Positions 3,671 to 4,783 of a stretch of 21,685 bases of DNA are shown piece after piece. Location of the stretch: the NCBI GenBank assembly GCA_037431425.1, contig GCA_037431425.1_4129.5. One strand, given 5' to 3'. The stretch is from a phage. The notes beneath the pieces were generated by a model, which worked only from the letters and a program-made list of their open reading frames with translations, was not told where the DNA came from and ran no database searches. The position numbers and the translations under genes are program-made. Position 1 is the first letter of the stretch. Every line of letters starts with the position of its first letter.

Positions 3671-4783
3671 ATGAAAAAGTATTTGGTTGGAGGTTATACG
3701 AGAGATCGTTTAATGGGCATCCGTGCAAAAGACAAAGATTATGTCATTGTTGGTGCAACTGAATCCGATATTAAGTACTTGCAAAGTATTGGTTATAAGC
3801 AAGTAGGCAAGGACTTCCCTGTGTACTTGAGTCCAGAGGGTAATGAACACGCATTGGCTCGTACCGAGCGTAAAACTGGTACTGGATATGGTGGTTTCGA
3901 AGTGAATACAAAAGGTGTGACACTAGAACAAGATCTATATCGTCGTGATCTCACAATCAATAGTATTGCGTATGATCCAGTACTCCAGATTCACATCGAC
4001 CCTTATGGTGGGAAAGCTGATATCAAGAACAAAGTACTTCGTCATGTATCAGAACACTTTAAAGAAGATCCATTGCGTGTTCTACGTTTGGCCCGTTTCG
4101 CTACACGTTACTCCGACTTTTCTATCCATGAAAGTACAGAGGAACTTGCTATTGGTATGGTCAATAGCGGTGAATTAGATCATCTTGTCCCAGACCGTGT
4201 TTTTGTTGAATTTGAAAAAGCACTTTCTGAAGAAAAACCATCTAAATTCATCAAAACCCTAAGTAAATTTGGTTATTATGAGAAAGTTTTCAAAACATCT
4301 CTAACTAAAAAGAATTTAGACCTAATTGATTATATTTCTGATAACTGCACTGATGTATATAAACCATATTTCTTATGGGCAGTACTTCTTGAAAATGAAG
4401 AAGTAGATAATAATTCTGTTCTAAATGGTGCTATTAAAGTTCCATTAAAGTATGTAAAATTTAGTAATTACATCAAACGTTTTTCTGATGATATCAAAAC
4501 CTTCCGAAAAAAGACCCCAGATGAAATGGGTAATATTTTAATGGAAATGAATATCAAAAACAACGGAGGTGAAGGATTCCTTTATAAAGTACTGGAGTAT
4601 TTCATTTTACGAAAAGAAATCGATTTAGAACATGAAGACCTGATTGTTAAAGTCTATGACAGATATACTGATGTAGTATTACCTGATATTCAGCAACTGG
4701 TGAAAGACGGTGAACTTGAAACATCAGAAATTCGTGATTTTGTTTGTGGGCTACGTCACGAAGCAATTAAACAATTATTCTAA
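3671..4783 (+). CDS. cca: class II tRNA nucleotidyltransferase (CCA-adding enzyme), no HD domain
   Basis: 370 aa; collinear strong similarity to the E. coli CCA enzyme head/neck: YLVGGYTRDRLMG (GGxxRD motif), KDKDYVIVGA, GKDFPVYL, ALARTERKTGTGYGGF, RRDLTINSIAYD, EDPLRVLRLARFATRY. Too short to include the C-terminal HD phosphohydrolase domain. Confidence 0.9.
   Translation: MKKYLVGGYTRDRLMGIRAKDKDYVIVGATESDIKYLQSIGYKQVGKDFPVYLSPEGNEHALARTERKTGTGYGGFEVNTKGVTLEQDLYRRDLTINSIAYDPVLQIHIDPYGGKADIKNKVLRHVSEHFKEDPLRVLRLARFATRYSDFSIHESTEELAIGMVNSGELDHLVPDRVFVEFEKALSEEKPSKFIKTLSKFGYYEKVFKTSLTKKNLDLIDYISDNCTDVYKPYFLWAVLLENEEVDNNSVLNGAIKVPLKYVKFSNYIKRFSDDIKTFRKKTPDEMGNILMEMNIKNNGGEGFLYKVLEYFILRKEIDLEHEDLIVKVYDRYTDVVLPDIQQLVKDGELETSEIRDFVCGLRHEAIKQLF

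Follow-up and report, generated by a model that had tools for sequence, protein, structure and literature searches.

What kind of enzyme is encoded by a phage gene that resembles E. coli cca in its head and neck domains, and what would a phage use it for? The gene lies in a 21,685-nucleotide stretch of phage DNA (GenBank assembly GCA_037431425.1, contig GCA_037431425.1_4129.5), referred to below as the window, and had been read in an earlier note as coding for a CCA-adding tRNA nucleotidyltransferase that ends before the HD phosphohydrolase domain.

A cca-like gene of an Asteriusvirus jumbo phage

ORF analysis of the window showed that 3671..4783 (+ strand, as are all genes and domains of the window described below) is an intact ATG-to-stop open reading frame of 370 codons plus the stop codon, in agreement with the position and size given in the earlier note. 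The whole window matched the genome of Escherichia phage ph0011 (OP557969.1, 348,217 bp, Asteriusvirus) at positions 122,968–144,659 with 98.9% identity and 100% coverage, and PBECO4, 121Q and other members of Asteriusvirus with approximately 86–89% identity. The protein was 98.6% identical to WAE77129.1 of ph0011 and matched PHROG 2244 (tRNA nucleotidyltransferase) over its full length (E = 8.1e-113, residues 1–369 on profile positions 3–387 of 392). Comparison with the jumbo-phage enzymes of this group (PBECO4, 121Q, GAP32 and ph0011) revealed no substantive difference, the identity to copies besides that of ph0011 being 57–92%, and a tblastn search found relatives of the protein in 493 phage records. 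The gene family is already known, annotated and reviewed (PHROG 2244; 2021): its GenBank label reads "tRNA nucleotidyltransferase" for ph0011, PBECO4, 121Q and others, but "multifunctional CCA protein" for Sharanji, slurp01 and phAPEC6, the CCA-adding enzyme ranks second in frequency among the RNA-repair nucleotidyltransferases of jumbo phages in a comparative study from 2021 (PMC7824862), and the CCA-adding gene of Sharanji has been placed among the translation-related genes of that phage (PMC11895373).

Head and neck domains and catalytic motifs

Pfam analysis of the 370-aa protein revealed a catalytic head with a Pol-beta-type nucleotidyltransferase domain (residues 4–124, 3680..4042; PF01743, PolyA_pol, E = 1.2e-17; 51% identity to E. 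coli Cca) and a neck (residues 149–208, 4115..4294; PF12627, PolyA_pol_RNAbd, E = 5e-8), with no other domain. When compared with Cca of E. coli K-12 (taken from NC_000913; UniProt P06961; 412 aa), residues 1–207 showed 51% identity in BLASTP (E = 2e-65) and no alignment extended past residue 207. The top NCBIfam model, NF008137 (multifunctional CCA addition/repair protein), was matched with 270.9 bits at model positions 1–207 of 409. The motif-for-motif resemblance to the head and neck of the E. coli enzyme noticed earlier was thus borne out, with motifs A, B and D shared. In these two domains the phage protein belongs to the gammaproteobacterial (E. coli) lineage, unlike the class II enzymes without HD domain for which structures are available (Thermotoga maritima, 3H37 and 5HC9; Bacillus stearothermophilus, 1MIV; human mitochondria, 4X4W), to which it showed only 20–24% identity.

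Conservation was analysed in an alignment of 52 homologs, 35 from jumbo phages and 17 cellular. In motif A (3689..3739), which contains G7-G8-x-x-R11-D12 and the metal-binding carboxylates D21-x-D23, residues G7, G8, R11 and D23 were invariant, D12 was at least 94% conserved, and position 21 was occupied by Asp in 49 sequences and by Glu in the other three. Motif B (R91-R92-D93, 3941..3949) was invariant, as were E132, D133 and R136 of motif D (E132-D133-P-L-R136 followed by RLARF, 4064..4099), whose EDxxR signature serves as the amino-acid template for CTP and ATP (PMC2532741). Invariant or nearly so were also A63-R-T-E-R-K68, D110, G114, D117, R139, R142 and F143. An alignment with class II enzymes had been proposed as a check on the catalytic Asp residues, and the near-invariance of D21, D23 and the remaining residues of the class II motifs among the 52 homologs gave no reason to abandon the assignment.

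The flexible loop, which in E. coli Cca spans R65–F74 and mediates addition of the terminal A, such that G70A, Y71A or deletion of the loop limits the enzyme to CC addition (PMC2532741), corresponds to R67–F76 of the phage protein (3869..3898). Seven of the ten loop residues were identical (RKTGTGYGGF versus RKSGSGYTGF in E. coli), including the Gly and Tyr that match G70 and Y71; within the 52 sequences, G72 and F76 were invariant and Y73 was at least 90% conserved. Natural CC-adding enzymes lack this loop (PMC2532741). An enzyme restricted to CC addition was therefore rejected as a candidate, because the loop is present and conserved.

A probable class II CCA-adding enzyme rather than a poly(A) polymerase

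Class II poly(A) polymerases and CCA enzymes have their Pfam domains and the EDxxR motif in common, and E. coli poly(A) polymerase was among the fold-search matches of the phage protein, so the alternative that the gene encodes a poly(A) polymerase, or an enzyme with the partial activity of adding CC only or A only, had to be weighed. Which product is made depends in part on the C-terminal portion, the swapping of which alters CCA versus poly(A) behaviour (PMC2532741). The body and tail of the phage protein have diverged strongly (~12% identity to cellular homologs; mean identity to the window protein within the phage family 44%, as opposed to 67% for head and neck), which in combination with the steering role of this part leaves some room for a changed product length. 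However, each direct comparison favoured Cca over the E. coli poly(A) polymerase PcnB: BLASTP gave 50.7% identity and 201 bits with Cca and 31.5% and 65.5 bits with PcnB, an HMM of the phage family scored 324 bits on Cca and 76 bits on PcnB, and the phage C-terminal profile matched the C-terminus of Cca with an hhalign probability of 81%, the corresponding value for PcnB being 0.4%. The NCBIfam models pointed in the same direction, as both PcnB models (TIGR01942, 86.9 bits, cut-off 305.65; NF008634, 48.2 bits, cut-off 702) and the A-adding model (67 bits, cut-off 1440) scored far below their cut-offs. The better match to poly(A) polymerase that had been named in advance as grounds for giving up the assignment was thus not found by BLASTP, family HMM, hhalign or NCBIfam; with the direct PcnB comparison and the NCBIfam scores a poly(A) polymerase was ruled out as a candidate, and we regard polyadenylating or partial activity as very improbable. 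Even less credible is the view that the gene is decaying or catalytically dead and plays no enzymatic role, for which only the degenerate HD region described below would speak, since the reading frame is intact, the catalytic residues do not vary even among homologs of as little as 39% identity, and both Asteriusvirus and Rak2-like jumbo phages have conserved the gene. The conserved motifs and the far better scores with Cca than with PcnB support the original call, and the product of 3671..4783 is very probably a class II CCA-adding tRNA nucleotidyltransferase.

The C-terminal region has lost the HD site but is not truncated

The Pfam HD domain of E. coli Cca extends from residue 229 to 328 of its 412 residues and would lie well inside a protein of 370 aa. 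[quoted passage not shown] Residues ~247–368 were homologous to residues ~280–402 of E. coli-type Cca, i.e. the rear of the HD domain and the tail (hhalign, probability 96%, E = 4.6e-9), and the profile and fold searches predict that the C-terminus folds as a usual class II body and tail. It was therefore incorrect to place the end of the protein ahead of the HD domain, truncation being ruled out by the E. coli HD coordinates, the hhalign homology and the fold searches.

The absence of HD phosphohydrolase function had been recognised correctly; what had been taken for a missing end is a site that has degenerated. Pfam gave no match to the HD domain (PF01966), even when the C-terminus was searched with a threshold of E ≤ 10. 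In E. coli Cca, the first ~75 residues of the HD domain had no aligned counterpart in the phage protein, with only ~40 residues in their place, and none of the histidines H231, H255 (HD dipeptide), H270/271/273 and H305 (second HD dipeptide) of E. coli Cca had an equivalent His in the phage protein, the only histidines of its C-terminus, H321 and H363, being non-conserved in the family. Compared with E. coli Cca, which is 42 aa longer, the phage enzyme is short of ~40 aa at the front of the HD domain and of every His ligand. Faint remnants of the E. coli site are C226-T-D-VYK in place of CHDLGK, which appeared in the pairwise alignment only and is a weak match, and RFSD in place of EFHD, which lies inside the hhalign region. 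On the evidence of these alignments, the protein is not truncated, and its HD phosphohydrolase site has degenerated and in part been deleted. As all metal ligands of the site are lost, removal of 2',3'-cyclic phosphate or 3'-phosphate ends should be impossible for the phage enzyme. Within the strongly diverged body and tail, a motif specific to the jumbo-phage family, N294-x-x-N297-x-G299-G300-E301, is conserved.

Since the protein gives no Pfam HD match and, with 271 bits, falls short of the NF008137 cut-off of 451, it lies outside the "multifunctional" family and the "multifunctional CCA protein" labels over-annotate it. The body domain of class II enzymes resembles part of the HD fold (PMC8464048), and the human enzyme is without HD activity, the HD domain of E. 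coli Cca being the one that removes 2',3'-cyclic phosphates (PMC6961547), which together indicate that the HD-less state is the norm outside the E. coli lineage. The closest cellular counterparts in this respect were HD-less proteobacterial Cca proteins (~360 aa, NF009811/NF009812 types; hits P0083 and P0106, on contigs of 0.18–1.4 Mb), which are similar in length and ~57% identical in head and neck, and whose C-terminus (protein length ~365 aa) aligned end to end with the whole phage C-terminus in a profile-profile comparison (probability 96%) but showed only ~12% identity there; the curated cut-offs of the NF009811/NF009812 types were missed by the phage protein as well as by P0083 and P0106.

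Genes in the neighbourhood of cca

The cca gene sits in a co-directional block of genes on the + strand. Upstream, the block contains genes coding for a lysozyme with a LysM domain (271–1230), an HPF/YfiA-like ribosome hibernation factor (1247–1579; Pfam Ribosomal_S30AE, E = 2.5e-10; TIGR00741, 36.3 bits, cut-off 40.9), which is a translation-control gene, and two tandem overlapping paralogs to which no function was assigned (2713–3126 and 3113–3535; both PHROG 20693, E = 1.6e-60 and 1.9e-53), which have the C-terminal motif GSLP...Y.FIDDTF..D in common (40% identity over 42 aa). A conserved acidic ORF of 40 aa (3547–3669; MITVLEEDWGVSEQGTDEYEYPEYQPKGFWERLRDWLMGE) stops one base before the ATG of cca and may be translationally coupled to it. 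Its protein was 92–97% conserved in Asteriusvirus genomes, with ~89% identity of the DNA in this region, and had a 51% match in Xanthomonas phage XaC1; the ORF is annotated in several relatives, ph0011 not being one of them.

Downstream of cca we found genes coding for a NUDIX protein (4890–5291), a glutaredoxin (5293–5541) and a macro-domain protein (6121–6600), the last of which matched PDB entries BT1257 (2FG1, E = 1e-15) and macrodomain 5E3B, had no Pfam match, and showed weak matches to ADP-ribose-1''-phosphate phosphatase and to a DarG antitoxin model; it may have an anti-ADP-ribosylation function. Structural genes follow after the macro-domain gene. The ORF at 6941–7318 is labelled "aminoacyl-tRNA hydrolase" in ph0011; Pfam, NCBIfam and PDB sequence searches with it returned nothing, its only PHROG match was phrog_14786 of unknown function, and the label looks unsupported. 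A local tRNA-related module around cca was considered and rejected, as the hydrolase label was not reproduced and the adjacent NUDIX, glutaredoxin and macro-domain genes are of a generic kind. A promoter scan around cca remained at background level (31 hits compared with 26 ± 6 expected from shuffled sequence). The sole strong terminator-like site between 2400 and 7600 was a hairpin at 6080–6103, located after the ORF at 5814–6071, with a 10-bp stem and a T-run on both strands, as in a bidirectional terminator.

tRNA genes with and without an encoded CCA end

No tRNA genes were found within the window. The entire genome of ph0011, a relative with 98.9% identity and not the window's own genome, was therefore scanned with ARAGORN, which placed all tRNA genes, seven in number, in one cluster at 299.6–304.0 kb. 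Judged by the bases after the discriminator, CCA was encoded by tRNA-Ser(GCT), tRNA-Met/Ile(CAT) and tRNA-Asn(GTT), whereas the discriminator was followed by C-A-A-A in tRNA-Ser(TGA), tRNA-Ser(ACT) and tRNA-Thr(TGT) and by C-C-T in tRNA-Arg(TCT). Four of the seven tRNA genes thus lacked a complete encoded CCA, as had been anticipated in the earlier note as one of two possibilities for the genome at large, and these tRNAs need a nucleotidyltransferase before they can be charged. Genes of this kind were also present in Sharanji (4 of 7), PBECO4 (3 of 6) and Klebsiella phage RCIP0023 (2 of 6), the Cca homolog of which was 67% identical. In the Asteriusvirus genomes (ph0011, Sharanji and PBECO4), the CCA-less genes had kept C74 and followed the pattern N73-C-A-(A/T)-A, i.e. 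a change of C75 to A and an A-rich trailer, the sole exception being tRNA-Arg(TCT) of ph0011 with CC-T.

The encoded-CCA state differed between orthologous tRNAs of phages that are ~90% identical: tRNA-Ser(TGA) and tRNA-Arg(TCT) have an encoded CCA in Sharanji, which their ph0011 orthologs lack. Such flipping looks like relaxed selection once CCA-adding activity is guaranteed. The content of the cluster varied as well, tRNA-Gly(TCC) being present in Sharanji and PBECO4 and absent from ph0011, and tRNA-Arg(TCT) not being detected in the stretch of PBECO4 that was scanned. In ph0011 a NUMOD4/HNH homing endonuclease gene (302,154–302,678) lies within the cluster, between tRNA-Ser(GCT) and tRNA-Ser(ACT).

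The tRNA-Ser with anticodon ACT, and hence A34, was found in ph0011 (302,740–302,831) and in Sharanji (5638–5729 of the stretch scanned). To our knowledge, A34 in bacteria is essentially confined to tRNA-Arg(ACG), where it is edited to inosine by TadA. Two proteins with a CMP/dCMP-type deaminase domain (Pfam dCMP_cyt_deam_1) are encoded by ph0011 (86,357–86,836 and 99,065–99,433), one of which is called a tRNA-specific adenosine deaminase in the Sharanji paper. If A34 of tRNA-Ser(ACT) were edited to I34, this tRNA would read AGU, AGC and potentially AGA (Arg).

A survey of 80 IMG/VR viral loci, all of them bearing Cca homologs and scanned with ARAGORN over ±10 kb of flanking sequence, yielded 87 tRNA genes at 16 of the loci. 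CCA was encoded in 61 of these genes (70%) and missing from 26 (30%), with a range per locus from 0 of 12 to 19 of 20. A general rule by which a phage cca gene would go along with CCA-less phage tRNAs was not upheld by this mixed picture, and CCA-less tRNAs cannot be the general reason for phage cca.

Proposed role of the phage enzyme

The gene product is likely to be a functional CCA-adding enzyme of class II, with which the Asteriusvirus jumbo phage would complete CCA-less phage tRNAs and maintain tRNA 3' ends, polymerising CCA without HD activity. According to sequence and models, D21 and D23 are placed such that they would bind the catalytic metals, the protein template E132-D133-x-x-R136 would select CTP and then ATP, the intact flexible loop R67–F76 would permit the switch to the terminal A, and the helical body and tail would presumably keep the tRNA anchored, which would lead to a stop of synthesis after three nucleotides. 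Most likely, the enzyme would work in exactly the same way as the polymerase half of E. coli Cca, removal of 2',3'-cyclic phosphate or 3'-phosphate not being expected of it. In the infected cell, host nucleases would trim the trailers of the CCA-less phage tRNAs (four of seven in ph0011), and the phage enzyme would then complete their 3' ends. Like host Cca, it would also restore CCA ends that have been eroded, on host tRNAs as well as on those of the phage. The ph0011 genome also encodes a T4-type RNA ligase 1 (Rnl1), a T4-type Pnkp with kinase and HAD phosphatase domains, and a PTH2 peptidyl-tRNA hydrolase, which is consistent with a role of the phage Cca in 3'-end maintenance and repair. 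Pnkp of T4 has 3'-phosphatase and 2',3'-cyclic phosphodiesterase activities, and its counterpart could heal phosphorylated 3' ends in trans, supplying the function lost with the dead HD site.

In E. coli, CCA is encoded in every tRNA gene and Cca is considered a repair enzyme only (PMC6961547), so that during infection phage tRNAs would be the only substrates for de novo CCA addition. Phage T4 offers a precedent, as it has a tRNA cluster in which some genes lack an encoded CCA and are completed by a tRNA nucleotidyltransferase, its tRNAs being matured with host BN nuclease, host Cca and RNase P; however, T4 borrows the host enzyme, whereas phages of the ph0011 type encode their own. Since host Cca can mature CCA-less phage tRNAs in T4, a phage copy is not strictly necessary. 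Moreover, CCA-less tRNAs are common but not universal beside phage cca, which implies that general maintenance and repair of 3' ends must be part of the selective value of the gene.

These considerations lend some weight to the alternative that the main role of the enzyme is repair or counter-defence, i.e. the rebuilding of eroded or attacked 3' ends of host and phage tRNAs, with the CCA-less phage tRNA genes as a tolerated consequence. The placement of the jumbo-phage enzyme among RNA-repair nucleotidyltransferases by Iyer et al. in 2021 (PMC7824862) fits with this alternative, as do the companionship of Rnl1, Pnkp and PTH2 as a tRNA-repair toolkit in ph0011, the many Cca-bearing viral contigs whose neighbouring tRNAs nearly all encode CCA, and the switching of tRNA-Ser(TGA) and tRNA-Arg(TCT) between Sharanji and ph0011; maturation, for its part, can be done by the host enzyme. 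However, loss of the HD site removes the very activity that adapts E. coli Cca to damaged (cyclic-phosphate) ends, no CCA-end-targeting defence system was linked to the phage in the present analysis, and repair is compatible with maturation, the two not being mutually exclusive. A predominant role in repair or counter-defence is therefore possible, though it is the less probable explanation. A more specialised and rather unlikely version is that the body and tail, with the family-specific motif N294-x-x-N297-x-G299-G300-E301, have been retuned for phage tRNAs or for a counter-defence in which 3' ends removed or blocked by host effectors are rebuilt, with Pnkp compensating for the loss of HD activity. 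If this were true, the phage would possess a 3'-end repair pathway of its own, dedicated to this task and separate from host Cca.

With completion and maintenance of tRNA 3' ends as the preferred role, the main value of the analysis is the correction of an annotation, given that the gene is already labelled in ph0011, PBECO4, 121Q and many relatives: the HD site appears to be dead rather than cut off, and the name "multifunctional CCA protein" used in several GenBank records overstates the function of the protein. For the biology of the family, the two to four CCA-less tRNA genes per genome of Asteriusvirus-type phages represent a concrete de novo substrate for the enzyme, and the drift of encoded CCA between close relatives is what would be expected where CCA-adding activity is always available.
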